Source of the DNA: an uncultured Gammaproteobacteria bacterium
Lineage (GTDB): Bacteria > Patescibacteriota > Microgenomatia > UBA8517
Direction of reading: 5' to 3'
NCBI GenBank assembly: GCA_964635715.1
Contig: CAZWNZ010000001.1
Location: forward strand, 408,616 to 472,615
Length of the DNA: 64,000 nt
Each line of letters begins with the position of its first letter. Within the stretch, counting starts at the first letter, position 1. The notes under the pieces are model-generated. The model saw nothing but the letters and a program-made list of their open reading frames with translations, made no database searches and was not told where the DNA came from. The position numbers and the translations under genes are program-made. Shown one piece after another: positions 52,022 to 63,118 of this stretch.

Positions 52022-52116
52022 TTTTGTTTTAATTTTACTGTAATTGAGTATAGGGGGGTGGGGGTGAAAGTCAAGATTCTATTTACCTTGCAAGGTATTT
52101 TTGGATCACCTCAAAG

Positions 52117-52145
52117 TTTACTAAAACTCCTTTAAGTAGTATAAT
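52117..52145 (+). promoter_or_regulatory. Consensus-like sigma70 promoter (TTTACT-17-TATAAT)
   Basis: The -35 is TTTACT at 52117-52122. A 17-nt spacer follows. The -10 is TATAAT at 52140-52145. Confidence 0.4.
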
Positions 52146-52159
52146 TGGCCGAAATTGAC

Positions 52160-52231
52160 ATGAAATTATTAACTACATCGGCAATGATGTGGATGCTCAG
52201 AAAGAGCATAAAGGTCTTTTTAAAAGACTAG
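52160..52231 (+). CDS. 23-codon micro-ORF (MKLLTTSAMMWMLRKSIKVFLKD) between promoter and terminator
   Basis: The ATG lies ~8 nt after the predicted TSS. The stop lies 5 nt before the terminator hairpin. The peptide is hydrophobic with a basic tail. Confidence 0.25.
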   Translation: MKLLTTSAMMWMLRKSIKVFLKD

Positions 52232-52235
52232 TATA

Positions 52236-52258
52236 CCCGCCTATATGGCGGGTTTTTT
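52236..52258 (+). terminator. Rho-independent terminator
   Basis: CCCGCC-tatat-GGCGGG is followed by TTTTTT. Confidence 0.55.
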
Positions 52259-52321
52259 GTACCGTCAAGATTAGACTTTAAGAAGGCCTTGTGGAGTGTA
52301 CTAAAGCATTGATAAAATAAA

Positions 52322-54283
52322 ATGACAAAAGAATTTGTAACAAATATGCACGAGGATAAAACAGAGCATGGTGTTAGTCCGTTTAGGTTTGCACGAGAAA
52401 ACATTGTTCCCAAAGGCACAAGAACACCGGAAACTCCCAAAGAGTTTATTGAAGCTGCCACAAATGCCGTTATTGTTGGCAAAGAACCGAAATTAGATAC
52501 TGTTTCGGATGCTTCTTTTGTTGCACGCTCAAAAATAGAAGCGATAGAACAAAACAACAACCTCCCTACAAATGTCAGGAAGTTTGCTGAAGGACTAAAA
52601 GATAATATAAAAGAATGGTCAGACAATGTTGGGGGAGATAAAAAGATAGGGGAAGTTATCAGAGCTGATCAAATAAAAGGTTTGCCGGAGGAGGATTTGA
52701 TAGACGCTAGAGATTTGCCCGGTGCAGGTAAAGCTGTAGAGATTGCAGCTAGGGCTGGTACAGCAGGAATATTGGCATTTCAGTTGGCAGGGTGTACGGA
52801 TCAGACAAATAATAATTCAAACGTCGAAACTCCTGCTTCGGGAGAGGCAGTAGCTGTTGGGCTTCTTGATGAGACAGAAATAGACAGTCTTCCAAATGGA
52901 GAAGTAAAGGATTCACTTCAGACAGAATTAGACAGTGTTAAAAAAGACTGTGCTGAAGTCCCCGGATGTATAGAGGATACAATTCAGATTTACAGAGTTA
53001 ATGTAAATGATGGAAATGAGGGGATAAATGTTTTTTCCTATCGCTTTGCCAATATTGATAATGCCGAAGGTCTACGCACTCAGATTTTGAGCATAATGGA
53101 CGGCAAAACCAAAGAAACTACCACAATTAACAAAGATCTTATAGCAAAAGACACTAAAATTGACGGAATCCCTACAAGAGTTTTTGGATATATCGATGAT
53201 TTGGGTAACAGCCACTACATATTAGTTGACAGACAAACCCAAAACGGAGATATGTTCCAGATATATGATGCGGATGGGGACGTGTACGACGTTATCACCC
53301 AAAACGAAAAAGAAGTTCAGGCATATTCACACCTTTGGCAGGAGCCAAGTATTGTAAAAGCCGAAGCGCTCCCTACAAGCAATCCTACAGAAACTATCAG
53401 TTTTGAAAGATATACATTTCAAAAGGGGGATACAATGGAAAGCTTGGCTGCAAAATATAACATCTCAGTAAGTGATTTGTTAAGTGCTGATGAAGAGAGA
53501 ATCTATCGATTAATTCCTGACGGCGGATATATAGGTAAAGAAATTCTTATACCTAGTAAAGGATTAAGCCAGGAAGCTATTGAGGAGAATCAAAAAGAAT
53601 TGTTAGATAATGCCCCAGAGGTTGAAGGTTATACAAAAGAGAACTGTTTTAACGGTTTTGTCTATTATAGAAATTCTGAAAACCAAAAAATTGACATAGT
53701 TTGGGATAAGGAATCAGGAGAGGTGATGGGGTATTATATTGCCAAAAACGGAACGGTTTTATTAACTGAGGGTACTGTATTGAAAAAGTCTGGACAGCTT
53801 GTGGTAGATAACAATAAGGAAGAGGATTTTGATGAGGCCATAACTCTTTGGAAACAAAGATTTATTGAGCAAGGAAATCCATTCGGAATAACAGAAGACA
53901 CTCCAATTCAACTAGAATATAGAGATTGGTGGTCAGGAATGTGGACAAACAGACTTAGAACAATAATAAATTATGGTGAGGGATATGGTGGGACTGGTTA
54001 CTCAATGACTTGGACACAAAATGGCTCAATTAGATTGATTTTCAGTAGAAGAAGTGAAGGGTTTATTTATTTGGGTGAAGAATTAGCACCAAGTCAGGCT
54101 TCTATTTCAACTGCATCCCTTCTTTTTTATACAGAGCCCAATAATATAAGTGCCTCAAATGAAAAAATTCCCTATCTGGTAAAGGATAACCTCGCTGCAT
54201 ATCTTGAGTATCTTAATCATTTATTTGACGGACAAGATCCTCGAATAGACAAAAACCTCAAAGGGGCTGTGGTGGTTCAATAA
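52322..54283 (+). CDS. Large hypothetical exported protein with LysM-like segment
   Basis: 653 aa. It contains a lipobox-like LAGC and a LysM-like YTFQKGDTMESLAAKYNISVSDLL. Confidence 0.55.
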   Translation: MTKEFVTNMHEDKTEHGVSPFRFARENIVPKGTRTPETPKEFIEAATNAVIVGKEPKLDTVSDASFVARSKIEAIEQNNNLPTNVRKFAEGLKDNIKEWSDNVGGDKKIGEVIRADQIKGLPEEDLIDARDLPGAGKAVEIAARAGTAGILAFQLAGCTDQTNNNSNVETPASGEAVAVGLLDETEIDSLPNGEVKDSLQTELDSVKKDCAEVPGCIEDTIQIYRVNVNDGNEGINVFSYRFANIDNAEGLRTQILSIMDGKTKETTTINKDLIAKDTKIDGIPTRVFGYIDDLGNSHYILVDRQTQNGDMFQIYDADGDVYDVITQNEKEVQAYSHLWQEPSIVKAEALPTSNPTETISFERYTFQKGDTMESLAAKYNISVSDLLSADEERIYRLIPDGGYIGKEILIPSKGLSQEAIEENQKELLDNAPEVEGYTKENCFNGFVYYRNSENQKIDIVWDKESGEVMGYYIAKNGTVLLTEGTVLKKSGQLVVDNNKEEDFDEAITLWKQRFIEQGNPFGITEDTPIQLEYRDWWSGMWTNRLRTIINYGEGYGGTGYSMTWTQNGSIRLIFSRRSEGFIYLGEELAPSQASISTASLLFYTEPNNISASNEKIPYLVKDNLAAYLEYLNHLFDGQDPRIDKNLKGAVVVQ

Positions 54284-54331
54284 TATGTTTTTTTTATTTT
54301 ACTTCAGACACGGTTATATGATACATTAATA

Positions 54332-54916
54332 ATGATGACTCGTAGGGTTTATTTTTTGGCCTTTATTGTTTTAATGGTTATCACCTTTGGGCTTCTAATT
54401 TTTTATTGGAAATTGGGTGGACTGGATGGGTTTATTGCAGATTTTCGTAGTAAATTTAATGTGTTGTTTGGTTGTGGGCGAGTAGATCTAATTAATAATA
54501 TAGAGGGTTCTACCTTTTCAATGGATGAAGAAAAATTTCTCAAAGAAGTTGATGCTATGGGGATTTGGAGTGGAATAGATTTAGACAACAGATCGTCATC
54601 CAATACTATTCAAAGATTTAGACCTTGCAATATAAAAGTGATTTTCACAGACTATATTTATAGTGATTTGCGTGTGCATAGATACTCCAATGATAAATAT
54701 ATTGGATCAACAAAGGTTGATGAAGAGGATAGGAACCTTTTAGTATATGTAGGGGTTGGTTCAGAATTTCTAACTGGGAGTTTAACAGCTGTAAATGTTG
54801 CTGTGGATTATATTATAATGTCGGATCTACATACTAGAATTTTTAATAGTAGTGGGGCTGTCTCTGGTTTTCAAAGGGTTACAGAAGGTAGTATTTTTAC
54901 AATATCTAATTTCTAG
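54332..54916 (+). CDS. Hypothetical membrane-anchored protein
   Basis: An N-terminal TM is present (VYFLAFIVLMVITFGLLIFYW). Confidence 0.45.
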   Translation: MMTRRVYFLAFIVLMVITFGLLIFYWKLGGLDGFIADFRSKFNVLFGCGRVDLINNIEGSTFSMDEEKFLKEVDAMGIWSGIDLDNRSSSNTIQRFRPCNIKVIFTDYIYSDLRVHRYSNDKYIGSTKVDEEDRNLLVYVGVGSEFLTGSLTAVNVAVDYIIMSDLHTRIFNSSGAVSGFQRVTEGSIFTISNF

Positions 54917-54917
54917 A

Positions 54918-56903
54918 ATGAAAAAACGATTGTTATTTTTTATAGCGCTAGGTTGCTTTTTAATGATACAGTTGTTTCTCGATAATTCAGTAAAAGCACA
55001 GTGTATTGGGAACGCGGTTTGTATTCCCCTGATGCCTAATTATTCCCCACCAGACTGTGAGCTTGGTGTTAATTGTGTTGAAACATGGAAATGTCCCGAA
55101 GGTGCGGGTGGGGCAGGTGTGGTAGTAGGATGCACTGAATACAGTTCAAGCTGTGTACCTAGTTGCCCTTATCATTATGCAAACTGTTCTGCTGCAAACA
55201 ATTGTTCAAGTTCAGCAAGCCCAACTCCTACTGGTGGTGGCGGGGCGGGGTGTATCTCCAGTAGAGGGCATACAGAACTTCCTGTTGTTTGCGAAAACAC
55301 AGGTTTTTACGGCCGTACTTATGCCACGGGTCGAAGTACCACGGATCCTGTTGCGGAAACATATTCCTGTGCCCCATATGCCGCGCCAATCGGAGGGGAA
55401 ACATGTCTTTATTGGATGAACAAATGGACCGGCTATCTGAACATTCCCGAGGCGGGGGATTATGAATTCTGGATATCATACCATCCTAAATTGAAGGTGC
55501 AAATCGATGTGAATCAGAATGGGACTTTTGATACTGCATGCGGTTCGGATACTGTCGGTGATAATTACGTTTATATTTCAGGTTCATGTAAAGATAGGTA
55601 CAGATACCAGAGATTGGTTAATTGGGGTCTTGTTACTTCCGCTGGTGGAGGCACTTGCTGGGAAGATTATGCCACTAGGACTTATTGTGATTATGGAAGT
55701 CATTGCCAAAATGCCGACTACAGAACTTACTACAGAAATAGAGATCTCGGGATTAGAACATTTGTCATAGGCGAATATTATCCGGAAGTAATTGTTCCAC
55801 TTGGTGTAGAACAGGTTGGCACTACCGAATGCCCGATTGCTGCGAACAATCAACATGCCGCGAGAGATGGAGGTGATGAACCAAGCTGGTTTTACAAAGG
55901 CACTGGCAATTCTTACTTTACCAGAACTCTTGGATCCGGCTCTGTTTTGGTTGATATGGCTTATACTTCTGCCGTTGATAAAGCCTCGCTCATGAGTCAT
56001 GCTTTGACATTTAAATACCGCAAAGTGGGAAGCACTGAGTGGATTAATTTAAACGATGCTTCCACATACCCGAGTGGTGTTTGCCCTGTAACTCCGTGCC
56101 TCGAAGAAATTTCTTCCATCGACGCCTGGTGGCAGGTCAAAGATGCAGATGTTGTTACCAATGGTGGGATTACAACCAATGTTGCCGAGTCCGGTCAGGT
56201 TTTTGATCTGGAAGGAAACGGTGGGTCACCTGGGGTTGTTGTTTATACTGGCAGTACGGATTTAACTACCTCCAACGTCTCGGAAGAGGGCTGGCTGGCA
56301 AACACTTCCACTTCTCAGGCTAGAGTGTTTAATTCCAAGTTTTTTGAAAATAGAATTCCCTCAGACGCCACCATTAATGAAATAAATTCCAGTTCGATTG
56401 ACGGAACATATTTGGAAAGCGGAACAGTATCGGGCGACGGGTATATTTGGTTTGTTTATGATGCAGGTAGTACAGGACTTGATTTAAATATTACTTCGGA
56501 TGCAAATCTTGGCAGCAATAAGGTTGTACTTTTTGTTAAAAATGCGAACCTTACTATTTCCGGAAACATAAACGTTACTGATGGTGCAGGATTTTTCCTT
56601 GCAGTTTCCGAAGGAAGTGTTTCGGTTGATGCATCTGTCGGTGGGGGGTCAAGTGCCAACCTGGAAGGTATATATATTGCTGACGGGTCTTTTTCATCAG
56701 GTACGGGAGGAAGTTCTTCCGATAGTCAACTTTGGGTAAGAGGAACTGTTGCGGCCTATGGGGGAGCAAATCTTGAACGTGATTTGGGTGCGTCAAATAA
56801 TGATTCACCTGCTGAATTTTTTGAGTATGCGCCTGACCAGGAGCTTCTTTTCCCAATCTCTCTTTCTTCCAGAGTAACAAACTGGAGGGAAATAGCCCCG
56901 TAA
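54918..56903 (+). CDS. Large Cys-rich secreted protein with PA14-like domain
   Basis: A signal peptide is present (MKKRLLFFIALGCFLMIQLF). The N-terminal 300 aa contains more than 30 Cys. The motif YWMNKWTGYLNIPEAGDYEFWISYHPKLKVQID is PA14/GLEYA-like. The start is taken at the internal Met rather than the track start. Confidence 0.55.
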   Translation: MKKRLLFFIALGCFLMIQLFLDNSVKAQCIGNAVCIPLMPNYSPPDCELGVNCVETWKCPEGAGGAGVVVGCTEYSSSCVPSCPYHYANCSAANNCSSSASPTPTGGGGAGCISSRGHTELPVVCENTGFYGRTYATGRSTTDPVAETYSCAPYAAPIGGETCLYWMNKWTGYLNIPEAGDYEFWISYHPKLKVQIDVNQNGTFDTACGSDTVGDNYVYISGSCKDRYRYQRLVNWGLVTSAGGGTCWEDYATRTYCDYGSHCQNADYRTYYRNRDLGIRTFVIGEYYPEVIVPLGVEQVGTTECPIAANNQHAARDGGDEPSWFYKGTGNSYFTRTLGSGSVLVDMAYTSAVDKASLMSHALTFKYRKVGSTEWINLNDASTYPSGVCPVTPCLEEISSIDAWWQVKDADVVTNGGITTNVAESGQVFDLEGNGGSPGVVVYTGSTDLTTSNVSEEGWLANTSTSQARVFNSKFFENRIPSDATINEINSSSIDGTYLESGTVSGDGYIWFVYDAGSTGLDLNITSDANLGSNKVVLFVKNANLTISGNINVTDGAGFFLAVSEGSVSVDASVGGGSSANLEGIYIADGSFSSGTGGSSSDSQLWVRGTVAAYGGANLERDLGASNNDSPAEFFEYAPDQELLFPISLSSRVTNWREIAP

Positions 56904-56936
56904 ATACATCGTAAATAACTAAGGCCTCATTAAATT

Positions 56937-57695
56937 CACTCCGAAACGGTTTCGGTGGAAATGAATTTTGGAAAAATAAATGTGATAATATTAAATTAAT
57001 ATATTAATGTCTGCAAGGAAACAAATATTTGAAACTGGTGATTTTTACCATATTTACAATAGGGCTGCTGCCGGTATTCCTATTTTCAATGACCCAACAG
57101 ATTGCCAAGTCTTTTTAGATTGTGCTAAATATTATCGTTTCAAAAATGTACCGGCAAAATTTTCTGTTTTTCGTCAAGATACAAAAAAATACAAGATTCT
57201 TGACGCACAAAGAATGGTTTCAGTTTTGGCCTATACTATAATGCCAAACCATTTTCATTTTGAGCTAAGACAGGATGGTGATGAAGGGATACAGCAATAT
57301 ATTAAAAAAGTTTGTAATAGTTTTGCTCATTATTACTCCTTGAAATATAAAGAGAAAGGACATGTTTTTCAGGGGAACTTTAAAGCGGCATATATTGAAA
57401 ATGATGATCAATTGCTGCATATATCAAGGTATATTCACTTAAATTCTACAACCTCTTATTTAGTGGAAGATCCCAAAAAATACGCTTTTTCATCATTTAA
57501 CAATTATTTGAATGTTTTAAAAGACGATTTTATAGACGCTGATATTATTCTTAGTCTAGTTGGGTCGAGAGATAGGTATGAGCAGTTTGTGTTGAACCAA
57601 AAGAAATATCAGAGAAAACTCAAAAGGATGAGGGATTTGCTTTTTGATTAACATTTACCGTATCAGCCTCACTCCGAAACCGTTTCGGAGTAGTG
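56937..57695 (+). mobile_element. IS200/IS605-like (HUH Y1 transposase) insertion sequence with hairpin ends
   Basis: The left end is CACTCCGAAACgGTTTCGGtGG at 56937-56958. The right end is CACTCCGAAACcGTTTCGGAGTaGTG at 57670-57695. Both are palindromic hairpins. A single tnpA lies between them. Confidence 0.65.
57007..57651 (+). CDS. tnpA: IS200/IS605-family Y1 (HUH) transposase TnpA-like
   Basis: YHIYNRAAAG is present. The HUH motif is in PNHFHFEL. The catalytic Tyr region is ISRYIHLNS. Confidence 0.7.
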   Translation: MSARKQIFETGDFYHIYNRAAAGIPIFNDPTDCQVFLDCAKYYRFKNVPAKFSVFRQDTKKYKILDAQRMVSVLAYTIMPNHFHFELRQDGDEGIQQYIKKVCNSFAHYYSLKYKEKGHVFQGNFKAAYIENDDQLLHISRYIHLNSTTSYLVEDPKKYAFSSFNNYLNVLKDDFIDADIILSLVGSRDRYEQFVLNQKKYQRKLKRMRDLLFD

Positions 57696-57755
57696 ACAAG
57701 GATAAATAGTAAGGGAAGACTTCCTTCTTGTCCAATTTTTTGTTAAAATAGCTTC

Positions 57756-59339: not shown

Positions 59340-60148
59340 CAACATATAATTATTATTTTTGGAAGACATACGTGAGCAGGGGAGGAGTGGAGTGCATAAC
59401 CCATAATTATCATATATGTTAAATTATAGGATAATGTTTTCACGAAATAATATAGGGTGTTTTCACGAAATGCGACACTGAAGCTTATCGAAGAAATACC
59501 GAACCCTTAGACTACACTTAGAATTGAGCGTAAATGGTATACTTTGATATAGTTCCCAGCCTCAAAATAGTACACTCTCTGTGTAAGACAAGACTCTTTA
59601 CTTATGTGGATAAGATTTTCCATAGCAATACGATATCTACCTATTGGAGAAGTGTTTCTATATAGGCATTCTTCGTAATTAAAATGCACTTATTCCTCTT
59701 AGAAGTGCTGCTAGGTAAATAGCCGAACATATACACCTTCAGGGAGCAATATTGTATATAGTCGCACAATAATACTTTTGCGACGTTGTTTAAAGCCGTG
59801 GAGGGTAGCGTAGTAAATTAGTTAATAACTAATAATTTAAAATTAATAGTTATTTTATGGTTTAGTTATATATTTAAATTCTCTATTTTTGGTTTTCCTT
59901 AAAATTCTTCTCTCCGAAACTTATCCGAATGAATTTTGCCTTTTTGCGACCCCTCCCCTGTTTTTTTGTAAGAAGTTTTAATAAAACATAAATTTTGGCT
60001 AATCTTATTGATTTTCCCAGGAATACGGGATAAATAGACGATACATTATTCATCTTTTTGCCCATGTATGCCTTAAAATCGATTTAGTGAGGTTTCAGCC
60101 TCAAATTAGGCATGGAAAACGCTCAAAAAGTGTGCTAAAAAGGCATTT

Positions 60149-60948: not shown

Positions 60949-61926
60949 ATGACTGAAACTGCTCAAAATCAGTCCGAGATAGCGAGAAAAATAGACGATT
61001 TTTTGGAATATCTCCAAGTTGAAAAGGGCTCCTCTCCCCTAACGATACGTGACTATAAACATTACCTGACAAGATTTGTTAATTGGATGGGTGCCGAAGG
61101 AATTCGGGAGGAATTGAAAGATATTAATCCCAATGTGATCAGGAGCTTCAGGATGTATTTGACAACCTTACCCGGTGAGAAAAATACCTTCAGTGGGAAT
61201 AAGCCTCAGATGAGCAGACGTACTCAGGCTTACCATGTAATAGCTCTTAGAAGCTTTCTAAAATGGCTTACACGAAATGATTATGTTGTTATGGCTCCCG
61301 ATAAAATTGATTTGCCAAAAGTCGAAGAAAGACAGGTAAAATTTTTAAATGGCGAACAAGTGGACAGACTTCTAAATGCTCCAACTCTATCTACAATCCA
61401 GGGAAAAAGAGATAAGGCGATTTTGGAAGTTTTGTTTTCAACAGGGCTTCGTGTTAGCGAACTTGTGAAGCTTGATCGTGATAAAGTGGATTTGGACAGA
61501 CGCGAATTTGGAATCATTGGAAAAGGAGGAAAAGCACGTGTTGTTTTTCTTTCTCAAAGAGCCACTGATTGGCTTATTAAATACTTAAATGAAAGAGACG
61601 ACCACTATAAACCTTTATTTATTCACCATAAAGGAATTTCTGCACCAGGTACTCCGGATGAAAAAATGAGGCTTACAGTACGTTCAGTCCAGCGGATGGT
61701 TAAGAAGTACTCCCATAAGATGAAACTACCGGTAGAAGTCACTCCTCACATAATGCGTCATAGTTTTGCCACAGATCTTTTAATGGCAGGAGCAGACATG
61801 AGAAGTGTCCAAGAAATGCTTGGACATAAAAATATTTCTACGACACAGATTTATACCCATGTGACCAATAAACAATTAAGGGATATCCATGAAGCCTTTC
61901 ATGGAAAGGGCGGAACTACAAATTGA
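60949..61926 (+). CDS. xerC: Tyrosine recombinase XerC/XerD
   Basis: An N-terminal SAM-like domain is present. The catalytic box is HIMRHSFATDLLMAGADMRSVQEMLGHKNISTTQIYTHV, with the R..HxxR..Y arrangement. Confidence 0.85.
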   Translation: MTETAQNQSEIARKIDDFLEYLQVEKGSSPLTIRDYKHYLTRFVNWMGAEGIREELKDINPNVIRSFRMYLTTLPGEKNTFSGNKPQMSRRTQAYHVIALRSFLKWLTRNDYVVMAPDKIDLPKVEERQVKFLNGEQVDRLLNAPTLSTIQGKRDKAILEVLFSTGLRVSELVKLDRDKVDLDRREFGIIGKGGKARVVFLSQRATDWLIKYLNERDDHYKPLFIHHKGISAPGTPDEKMRLTVRSVQRMVKKYSHKMKLPVEVTPHIMRHSFATDLLMAGADMRSVQEMLGHKNISTTQIYTHVTNKQLRDIHEAFHGKGGTTN

Positions 61927-61934
61927 TTGTCTAT

Positions 61935-62993
61935 CTAATTATCTATTTTCTCCCAGGGAAATCCGGGGCGGCCAAAATGGCCATAAGTAGCGCTTGCATG
62001 ATAAATTGGTTTTTGTAAATCTAACTTTTCAATAATTGCACGAGGTCTAAAATCAAAATTTTTCGATACATATTTACTCAAATCGTACCCTTTCTCGTCA
62101 AGCGCTGTAATCATCAAAGGTTCAGCTTTCCCGATAGCATAGGCTACCGATACCAGACATTGTCTGGCAAGACCCTTAGCAACAACGTTTTTGGCAACAA
62201 ATCTGCACATGTACGCCCCGCTTCTATCTACTTTTGTCGGATCCTTTCCGGAAAAACATCCCCCGCCGTGGGGAATTAAACCTCCGTATGTATCAACCAT
62301 AATTTTGCGTCCTGTAAGGCCGGTATCTCCCATAAACCCGCCAATTTCAAAGTTGCCCGTTGGATTAACAAGAATATTGATTCCCTTAGTCTCCCCCACT
62401 ACTTTTTTAATTAATTTGTTGGTTATTTCACGGCGGACTGTCTCAATTGGGATTCCTTTTTTGTGTTGGGTGGAAACAAGAACCGTTATAATTTTTCCAT
62501 TCTTCATGGTAATTTGGGCTTTGCCGTCAGGAAGTAACCAGGGAATTTTTTTGCTACGTCTAAGATCTTCCAGTCCTTTTGTCAGTTTGTGAACCATCGC
62601 CACTGCCCTGGGCAGATATTCAGGGGTTTCGTCTGTGGCGAATCCGTACATGATACCCTGATCCCCGGCTCCTCCAGTATCTACTCCCAGAGCAATATCG
62701 GCAGACTGTTTAATAATATTTGTGATTATTCTCAGTTTGTCCTTGTAACCGATATCTTTATAAACTTTTTGGGCAATTTTCGAAGCATCAAATTCTGCCT
62801 TGGTTGTAACTTCCCCACCGATTACAAAAATGCCGTGAGATCCGAAAGATTCGATGGCAACACGGCTTTTTGGGTCCTGACGCAGACATTCATCAAGCAT
62901 CGCGTCAGAAACTTGATCACAGATTTTATCGGGATGGCCCTCAGTTACGGATTCTACTGTATAAGTTTTGAAGTTATTGGTTATTATTCCCAT
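61935..62993 (-). CDS. metK: S-adenosylmethionine synthetase
   Basis: ESVTEGHPDKICDQVSDAMLD is present. GGGAFSGKDPTKVDRS-like GGGCFSGKDPTKVDRSGAY is present. Confidence 0.9.
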   Translation of the reverse strand: MGIITNNFKTYTVESVTEGHPDKICDQVSDAMLDECLRQDPKSRVAIESFGSHGIFVIGGEVTTKAEFDASKIAQKVYKDIGYKDKLRIITNIIKQSADIALGVDTGGAGDQGIMYGFATDETPEYLPRAVAMVHKLTKGLEDLRRSKKIPWLLPDGKAQITMKNGKIITVLVSTQHKKGIPIETVRREITNKLIKKVVGETKGINILVNPTGNFEIGGFMGDTGLTGRKIMVDTYGGLIPHGGGCFSGKDPTKVDRSGAYMCRFVAKNVVAKGLARQCLVSVAYAIGKAEPLMITALDEKGYDLSKYVSKNFDFRPRAIIEKLDLQKPIYHASATYGHFGRPGFPWEKIDN

Positions 62994-63118
62994 ATCGTTA
63001 ATGCAGCTTTGGCACCCATCCTCGATTTACTGGCTATAGCCCTGAGTGAGCTTTAGCGAATCGAAGGGTTGTCGGCGGATCATAGGGCTTGCCCCCTCCC
63101 CGCACTCTTGATACTAAA
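62994..63118 (-). ncRNA. SAM-I (S-box) riboswitch upstream of metK
   Basis: The minus strand reads ...AUCAAGAGUGCGGGGAGGGGGCAAGCCCUAUGAUCCGCCGACAACCC...AUGGGUGCCAAAGCUGCA.... This matches the S-box blocks AUCAAGAG-GGC-GAGGGA, GCCC-AUGA-CC-GCAACC and GGUGCCAA-CC-GCA. Confidence 0.55.

Follow-up and report, generated by a model that had tools for sequence, protein, structure and literature searches.

A probable REPtron- or TIRtron-like cassette: a single-copy class-2 Y1 gene with two private hairpin modules in a Microgenomates genome

The 64,000-nucleotide (nt) stretch of contig CAZWNZ010000001.1 analysed here (positions 408,616 to 472,615 of the forward strand; hereafter the window) carries a gene for a single-tyrosine (Y1) HUH protein that is enclosed by two palindromic hairpins. 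We propose that this locus is a cassette resembling a REPtron or TIRtron, that is, a single-copy class-2 Y1 gene accompanied by two same-strand cognate hairpin modules of ~50 nt, and we give this reading a probability of about two thirds. The locus had been described in an earlier note as an IS200/IS605-like element with a degenerate solo end lying 2.2 kb away. What looked like an insertion sequence (IS) is re-labelled here as a domesticated gene of the RAYT/TIRYT type (RAYT, a tyrosine transposase associated with REPs, or repetitive extragenic palindromes; TIRYT, the corresponding enzyme associated with terminal inverted repeats) with private hairpins, and the false solo end is removed.

The open reading frame (ORF) on the + strand encodes 214 amino acids (aa) with the HUH motif PNHFHFE and the single-tyrosine motif RYIHLN. 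The protein matches Pfam Y1_Tnp at 26.1 bits (cutoff 23), as do all of the 40 family members that were aligned (40/40), and its sole NCBIfam match is REP_Tyr_transpos (NF047646; 48.2 bits). Residues Y14, H15, H82, F83, H84, G118, F125, R141, Y142, I143, H144, L145 and S163 are invariant in this alignment. According to Table 1 of Quentin et al. (2018), Y1 enzymes of subclass 2.1 are characterized by NH[YF]H, FQ, Y[IV]HLNP and an SS tail motif, with a median length of 238 aa (PMC6006769); this subclass corresponds to the group 1 RAYTs of Bertels and to what Di Nocera et al. (2013) named TIRYTs (PMC6006769, PMC3733652). TnpA of the IS200 type (subclass 1.1) instead has DH[VI]H and Y[IV]ENQ (Y---Q) in a core-only protein of ~150 aa (PMC6006769). 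The window protein possesses NHFH, FQ (within VFQGNF), YIHLNS and SS (S162 and the invariant S163), so that by motif comparison, as distinct from phylogenetic placement, it appears to be subclass-2.1-like.

Structural comparison points in the same direction. Among solved structures the family profile best matches Escherichia coli TnpA_REP (4ER8; E=8.6e-4), over a region spanning the HUH to the Tyr motif, versus E=0.08 for ISDra2 TnpA. The AlphaFold2 model of the 214-aa protein (pLDDT 91.6) has three C-terminal helices, and in Foldseek it retrieves 4er8_A with E=2e-8 and a TM score of 0.74, against E ~1e-4 and TM ~0.6 for the ISDra2 and IS608 TnpA proteins. None of the 40 members gave a Pfam match at E≤0.01 to a C-terminal domain of the Bac_DnaA_C, HTH_23 or HTH_28 type. 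On the grounds of motifs, family profile and predicted fold, we conclude that the enzyme is a class-2 (RAYT/TIRYT-type) Y1 protein and not an IS200/IS605 transposase.

A search of 5.8 billion protein clusters returned 707 homologs, the nearest of which, the source genome's own entry aside, is only 54% identical. Nearly every homolog cluster is a singleton found on one to three contigs; those that are named belong to Microgenomates/Patescibacteria. Exhaustive HMMER searching yielded 14,116, 4,013 and 119 representatives at E≤1e-3, 1e-10 and 1e-30, respectively; the Y1 superfamily is very large, and within it the close subfamily is compact. By tblastn, the 64-kb window contains no other copy of the Y1 gene, intact or decayed, and tnpB is absent. 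IS200/IS605 TnpA genes occur on average in 4.8 near-identical copies per genome, at 99% identity (PMC6006769); here there is one copy in 64 kb and the nearest database relative is the 54% homolog. Of the family assignment in the earlier note, therefore, the Y1/HUH gene holds and IS200/IS605 membership falls, given the class-2 motifs, 4ER8 as best structural match, the single copy and the distance of the nearest homolog.

The hairpins reported on both sides of the gene are borne out. The left core hairpin, CCGAAACGGTTTCGG (56941-56955), and the right one, CCGAAACCGTTTCGG (57674-57688), both follow the pattern CCGAAAC-N-GTTTCGG, and the right stem lengthens to 10 bp (ACTCCGAAAC/GTTTCGGAGT, 57671-57691). 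Aligned as direct repeats, the two copies are the same at 19/20 positions, and as inverted repeats at 18/18. With up to three mismatches allowed, the pattern occurs in the window at the two gene flanks and nowhere else, against an expectation of 0.13, and none of 100 shuffles attains the observed four strand-hits; perfect GC-containing palindromes with a stem of at least 7 bp number 15 in the whole 64 kb. Of the further copies that the earlier note had wished to see searched for, the window thus has none. The suggestion that the hairpins might be generic terminators is refuted by this lack of other copies in the window and by the lack of T-runs: no terminator-like site or T-run exists at either hairpin.

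Each hairpin lies within a larger module (Table 1). The left-end module is located immediately 5' of the presumed promoter of the gene, and the TGAATTT past its core pairs with AAATTCA ahead of it; its predicted single-stranded DNA (ssDNA) fold has an energy of -8.2 kcal/mol, equalled by 8/200 shuffles. The right-end module, whose hairpin lies 20-39 nt past the stop codon, folds at -9.6 kcal/mol (z -2.9). Both modules point the same way as direct repeats, and at each end the foot motif stands on the same side of the hairpin. Neither AGCCTCA nor CAGCCTCAAA is enriched in the window (9 vs 6.1 and 7 vs 5.0 expected), and the significance of AGCCTCA lies solely in its positional conservation beside hairpins. 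CCGAAAC 7-mers are mildly enriched (17 vs 6.8 expected). The GT[AG]G motif is absent from the 5' hairpin foot, which reads ..TCACT or ..CTCACT; GTGG and GTAG are present only 3' of the stems and are not conserved in relatives. The GGGGWSAS motif of terminal inverted repeats is absent from the cassette.

Table 1. Coordinates in the window of the Y1 cassette and its parts
Feature	Position	Strand	Basis
Whole cassette, 814 nt, present in the window and absent at the big2-stop/yebC junction of L099/L100	56904..57717	+	Junction alignment
Left foot GGCCTCA, 5' of the left hairpin, counterpart of the right-end AGCCTCA	56923..56929	+	Positional conservation
Left-end module, extended imperfect hairpin AAATTCAc-TCCGAAA-CGG-TTTCGG-tGgaaa-TGAATTT with perfect 15-nt core (56941-56955)	56932..56968	+	Pattern search, ssDNA fold
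Gene, predicted class-2 TnpA_Y1 (RAYT/TIRYT-like HUH single-tyrosine ssDNA endonuclease/ligase)	57007..57651	+	HUH H82-F83-H84, catalytic Tyr142 in RYIHLN
Right-end module: half-site ACCGTATC, foot AGCCTCA (57665-57671), core (57674-57688), outer stem ATTTACC/GGATAAAT	57653..57707	+	Fold, subfamily consensus

The pairing of gene and hairpins extends across the family. Loci with homologs were gathered from genomes (15) and metagenomes (80), together with the contigs of the closest homologs; they are mostly from bacteria of the candidate phyla radiation (CPR). L numbers denote these and other related loci. In the 75 non-redundant loci with complete genes, the 130-nt flanks on either side of the gene were compared for exact shared repeats of 12 nt or more. 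Such a repeat is present in 49 of the 75 loci (65%) compared with 4 of 600 mismatched upstream/downstream control pairs (0.7%), and the median longest match is 15 nt in the loci versus 7 nt in the controls. The repeat is nearly always a hairpin, and it differs between genomes while matching inside one locus. Thus, the core palindrome CCGAAAC-N-GTTTCGG of the window corresponds to CCGATCC-N-GGATCGG in L016 and L106, to CCGATAC-C-GTATCGG at the right end of L016, to CCGAGCC-T-GGCTCGG and ACGAGCC-A-GGCTCGT in L020 and to ACGATCC-N-GGATCGT in L021. In the 7-bp core of the close subfamily, 97% of the stem cells pair, compensatory double changes are found at 3/7 pairs, none of the 77 stem cells forms a G-T pair and 0/500 shuffles attain the covariation score. 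Beyond the immediate flanks, the locus-specific hairpin recurs only nine times in 367 kb of neighbouring sequence over all loci. REP-like dispersal, which the earlier note had also raised, is therefore scarcely seen around the homologs, and in the sequence covered the hairpins are private pairs, not dispersed REP families.

The close subfamily also shares the layout of the modules. Its right end has the consensus ACCGGAT-n-AGCCTCA-nn-hairpin, that is, an ACCGGAT-like half-site, AGCCTCA, 2 nt and the hairpin. On the coding strand, a motif R-G-S-C-T-C-A stands 5' of the hairpin at both ends in the window, L016, L106, L109 and L019; in L021 it is seen at the right end. The flanks of L109 and L019 are direct repeats of at least 50 nt, in which a module of ~55 nt that includes a promoter-like part is duplicated downstream. 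A TTGAC -35-like box begins 6-7 nt past the left hairpin in four loci (L016, L019, L020 and L021); 17-18 nt beyond this box comes a -10-like hexamer, itself 6-7 nt ahead of the ATG. This spacing suggests a leaderless mRNA, and from the position of the left hairpin next to the gene's own -35-like box we infer that binding by the enzyme may serve autoregulation.

In a more distant branch of the family, a copy of the locus-specific flanking hairpin is embedded in the Y1 coding sequence itself, in frame and N-terminal to the HUH motif. This is seen in L100 (712-745; KFTLQGSTFQGI) and also in L079, L085 and L091 (~505-525 nt ahead of the stop codon). These in-gene hairpins recall the REP-in-tnpA insertions of subclass 2.4, from which they differ in position.

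The borders of the cassette are defined by comparison with its closest relatives, which were identified by YebC (84-86% identity) and have the same flanking genes, in the order dksA-like, pseudouridine synthase, exchangers and TPR(-), then yebC, DUF5656, a gap of ~800 nt, NT5C, xerC and metK(-). Between TPR(-) and yebC there is nothing in L101 and L112; L099/L100 have Y1' (a 33%-identical paralog), big1 and big2, and the window has big1, big2 and Y1. L111 has a peptidase M16 gene upstream of yebC. At the L099 junction the end of the surface-protein gene big2, ccgTAA, is followed directly by gactttcttattgatc and then by the ATG of yebC, whereas in the window 56904-57717 is interposed between ccgTAA and gacttccttcttgtcc, which leads to the ATG. 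The boundary is ambiguous by ~2 nt (AA). No target duplication is present at the cassette borders; close to each is a copy of a weak, imperfect direct repeat, TAAATA(AC/G)TAAGG (56912-56924 and 57702-57714). The variable surface-protein island as a whole (~52077-57733) comprises two large secreted-protein genes (52322-54283 and 54852-56903) and the Y1 cassette, which occupies the right border of the island in the window, a Y1 paralog being at the left border in L099/L100.

The association of Y1 with big2 reaches further than these relatives. The Y1 proteins of L106 and L109 are 54% and 52% identical to that of the window, respectively, and each gene directly follows a big2 homolog (46-59% identical in the C-terminal 266 aa); the right neighbours differ. 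Since L106 and L109 share the big2 neighbour at 52-54% Y1 identity, the big2-Y1 adjacency is old. A plasmid search gave 12 distant matches only. With this old adjacency, the single copy and the lack of near-identical copies in the searches made, the cassette fits a long-resident, mostly vertically inherited (domesticated) unit that is occasionally gained or precisely lost, and it does not behave as a proliferating IS.

A plausible mode of action can be outlined from better known enzymes. The TnpA proteins of IS608 and ISDra2 bind hairpins on ssDNA, read a foot sequence, and cleave and rejoin DNA through a tyrosine, and they form one source of the analogy. The other is E. coli TnpA_REP (PMC3333891, PMC3479197, PMC8266576). 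Each module consists of a half-site, the AGCCTCA foot, a core palindrome with a 7-bp stem and 1-nt loop, and an outer stem. By comparison with both sources, the enzyme would bind the folded hairpin on ssDNA, probably on the + strand, and would read the short foot motif, AGCCTCA taking the place of GTAG. Tyr142 and the HUH-bound metal would then cleave and rejoin ssDNA near the hairpins, a chemistry that would explain how the cassette is, on rare occasions, gained or precisely lost. Recognition of the hairpins by the enzyme, as supposed in the earlier note, is on this analogy a sensible mechanism. The + strand bears the asymmetric foot motifs, and GC skew is positive across the window; this suggests that the + strand is the lagging-strand template, with the qualification that gene-strand bias confounds GC skew.

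Several points weigh against interpretation of the locus as a REPtron- or TIRtron-like cassette. The 48.2 bits of the REP_Tyr_transpos match do not reach the curated cutoff of 80. In the 40-member alignment the consensus reads RYIHLNP and P147 hardly varies, and in the window protein Ser replaces this Pro of Y-x-x-x-N-P. The loci used for the covariation analysis were picked by means of a palindrome search, so that their high pairing is partly built in. The copy count of the hairpin covers 64 kb of a contig of at least 482 kb, and an element that is still mobile would fit the clean presence/absence of the cassette equally well. It is by analogy that we infer binding, cleavage and the active strand. 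Finally, because a survey found no REP-like structures beside subclass 2.1 genes (PMC6006769), the subclass 2.1 motif assignment may be imperfect.

A different account would take the locus for an autonomous and currently active IS of the IS200/IS605 type that moves by peel-and-paste ssDNA transposition, with the hairpins as its left and right ends. The Pfam Y1_Tnp score above cutoff and the precise 814-nt presence/absence with no target duplication favour this reading. So do the hairpin modules, which as in IS608 are direct repeats on one strand and lie just within the two boundaries of the element (the left boundary being 5' and the right boundary 3' of its hairpin). The enzyme itself speaks otherwise: it has Y---N(P/S) rather than Y---Q, NHFH rather than DH[VI]H and 214 rather than ~150 aa, its best structural relative is TnpA_REP, and tnpB is missing. 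Nor does the distribution suggest current activity, with one copy in the window, a closest homolog at 54%, clusters of one member, no near-identical copy in the collections searched and a left neighbour kept at 52-54% protein identity. We therefore judge an active IS to be unlikely. About equally doubtful, and if anything slightly more so, is the idea that the hairpins act at the level of RNA or transcription, as operator, UTR-stabilizing (UTR, untranslated region) or attenuator elements, and are not substrates for DNA cleavage. The left hairpin does stand 6-7 nt upstream of the TTGAC box in the four loci named above, and the right hairpin, 20-39 nt past the stop, would hence lie in the 3' UTR. 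Against such a role, the 77 stem cells contain no G-U/G-T pair, neither a T-run nor a terminator-like site is present, and transcripts of the gene probably do not include the left hairpin, which precedes the -35 box; duplication of the ~55-nt module, promoter-like part included, downstream in L019 and L109 better suits a DNA repeat. An operator role is in any case compatible with the cassette proposed here and does not exclude it.

That the palindromes are coincidental or generic intergenic features (terminators, restriction or regulatory sites) with no relation to the gene is very improbable, and we regard it as effectively refuted. Both do lie in intergenic spacers, where palindromes are commoner, and the 7-mer CCGAAAC is mildly enriched; chance would nevertheless have to explain why the only two copies in the window flank this gene, why 65% of the 75 loci have a flank repeat as opposed to 0.7% of the controls, and why there is no terminator signature.

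The earlier note had also seen a likely decayed or solo end, or a REP-like derivative, at 59911-59940, and this claim is withdrawn. The sequence is present as described there. The gapped alignment of 59909-59940 to the left end has a score of 29, the best in the window; this score is reached by 5/100 composition-preserving shuffles, and the block TCTCCGAA..TTA.CCGAA (core CTCCGAA..TTA.CCGAA) is invariant in five related genomes with no such cassette beside yebC. The marginal score and the invariance of the block in cassette-free relatives together rule out a decayed end. A miniature-element relic at 59909-60110, composed of left-end and AGCCTCAAA right-end remnants, is likewise ruled out, as both pieces are invariant in relatives.

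These sequences belong to a region of ~800 nt (59340-60148) without a conserved ORF. It is bordered by the DUF5656 membrane-protein gene and the NT5C-like gene, and is kept in position and sequence in six Microgenomates genomes (71-72% mean column identity). Among its invariant blocks are GGGGAGGAG...CCCCTCCCC, which might form a long-range helix, a repeat GTTTTCACGAA present twice, a perfect DnaA-box sequence, TGTGGATAA, then GTCGCACAATAATACTTTTGCGAC and a motif AGCCTCAAA, also present twice; the region has an AT-rich tract as well. Searches of Rfam gave no family, whether at gathering score or at E≤10, and neither tRNA nor tmRNA was detected in the region. RNAalifold mildly favours the + strand (-51.6 vs -44.3 kcal/mol; 23 vs 6 pairs with double changes); its support is weak, the covariation term being positive (unfavourable). 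A replication origin seems unlikely in this region, since a replication fork moving rightwards through it is indicated by GC skew, which peaks near 62 kb, and by gene orientation; a small minus-strand ORF was rejected as not conserved. The region is a candidate for a large unannotated non-coding RNA or DNA-level element.

A solo hairpin was found elsewhere, in the TPR/big1 spacer: TACCTTGCAAGGTA at 52084-52097 aligns at 14/17 positions with ACCTTGTAAGGATCGACCTTTCAAGGTA, a hairpin found both in the flanks and inside the Y1' gene of L100 (499-526, 712-745 and 1232-1262), in the orthologous place. The window has the hairpin in this spacer and lacks the Y1' gene, so that 52084-52097 is a solo hairpin of a second Y1 cassette type.

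Other features were noted towards the right end of the window. A match to the SAM-I (S-adenosylmethionine) riboswitch at 62989-63117 (-), directly upstream of metK (61935-62993, -), scores 36.5 bits (E=1.2e-6; gathering score 44.4), and its counterparts in L101 and L099 reach 59 and 42 bits, respectively; this is probably a real but divergent riboswitch that falls under the gathering threshold. The cumulative GC skew rises almost monotonically from position 1 to ~62 kb and is then flat, the genes switch from + (up to xerC) to - (metK) at ~61900-62000, and in L112 SIMPL(-) and gyrA(-) follow that point. This suggests a replication terminus at the right end of the window, beside the xerC-type recombinase gene. 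In L103 (7712-9946), the ortholog of this xerC-type gene (window 60949-61926) is split by an intein with Intein_splicing and LAGLIDADG_3 domains (744 vs 325 aa).

The combination described here, a co-varying hairpin pair in 49 of 75 homologous loci with almost no dispersal, is of interest because the survey in PMC6006769, which did not include CPR bacteria, reported none beside subclass 2.1. Should the proposal be correct, minimal genomes would offer the simplest natural enzyme-substrate pairs for hairpin recognition by Y1 enzymes and could show a REP system before, or without, REP proliferation. The two Y1 cassette types stand at opposite borders of the island in sister lineages, the window cassette at the right and the L100-type solo hairpin at the left. 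A bolder proposal, which we put forward as speculation with odds well against it, is that a very large, mostly-CPR family of single-copy class-2 Y1 enzymes, each owning a private, co-evolving direct-repeat hairpin pair with a foot of the AGCCTCA type and with its upstream module next to the gene's promoter, constitutes a self-contained site-specific ssDNA recombination module, intermediate between IS200/IS605 and RAYT/REP systems, that excises and re-inserts as a unit and marks or remodels the borders of surface-protein islands.

Among known systems, the IS200/IS605 elements (IS608, ISDra2 and IS200) share with the window cassette the HUH/Y1 core with its Pfam Y1_Tnp match, subterminal hairpins at the two ends, both on one strand, and a presence/absence junction with no target duplication. 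The cassette differs from them in the Y---NP/S and NHFH motifs, in a protein that is ~60 aa longer owing to N- and C-terminal extensions, in its single copy with no tnpB, and in a weaker fold match (E ~1e-4 vs 2e-8 for TnpA_REP). Closer are the RAYT/TnpA_REP REPtrons, exemplified by E. coli YafM/RayT (4ER8; Ton-Hoang et al., 2012, PMC3333891; Messing et al., 2012, PMC3479197; Corneloup et al., 2021, PMC8266576), which likewise combine a single-copy gene for a class-2 Y1 HUH enzyme with cognate palindromes that co-evolve with the protein and have a short conserved motif at the 5' hairpin foot. In contrast to these, no dispersed high-copy REP was seen here (none in the other 63 kb of the window and nine extra copies in 367 kb across the 75 loci), the foot is AGCCTCA instead of GT[AG]G, the flanks carry direct copies and not inverted REPIN doublets, and the NCBIfam REP_Tyr_transpos score of 48 bits is under the cutoff of 80. 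The TIRYT/TIRtron systems of subclass 2.1 (PMC3733652, PMC6006769) differ in having terminal inverted repeats with GGGGWSAS, where the window flanks are direct hairpin modules with an AGCCTCA foot, and in a C-terminal HTH/DnaA_C-like Pfam domain that is lacking here. The host, a member of the CPR/Microgenomates, also lies outside the surveys of PMC6006769 and PMC3733652, and our literature search found no paper linking class-2 Y1 enzymes to CPR bacteria. TIRtrons nevertheless share with the window cassette the NH[YF]H, FQ, Y[IV]HLNP and SS tail motifs in proteins of ~210-240 aa, a low copy number and a private, possibly self-complementary repeat pair at the flanks, often with no dispersed family, and they predominate in genomes without REPs.

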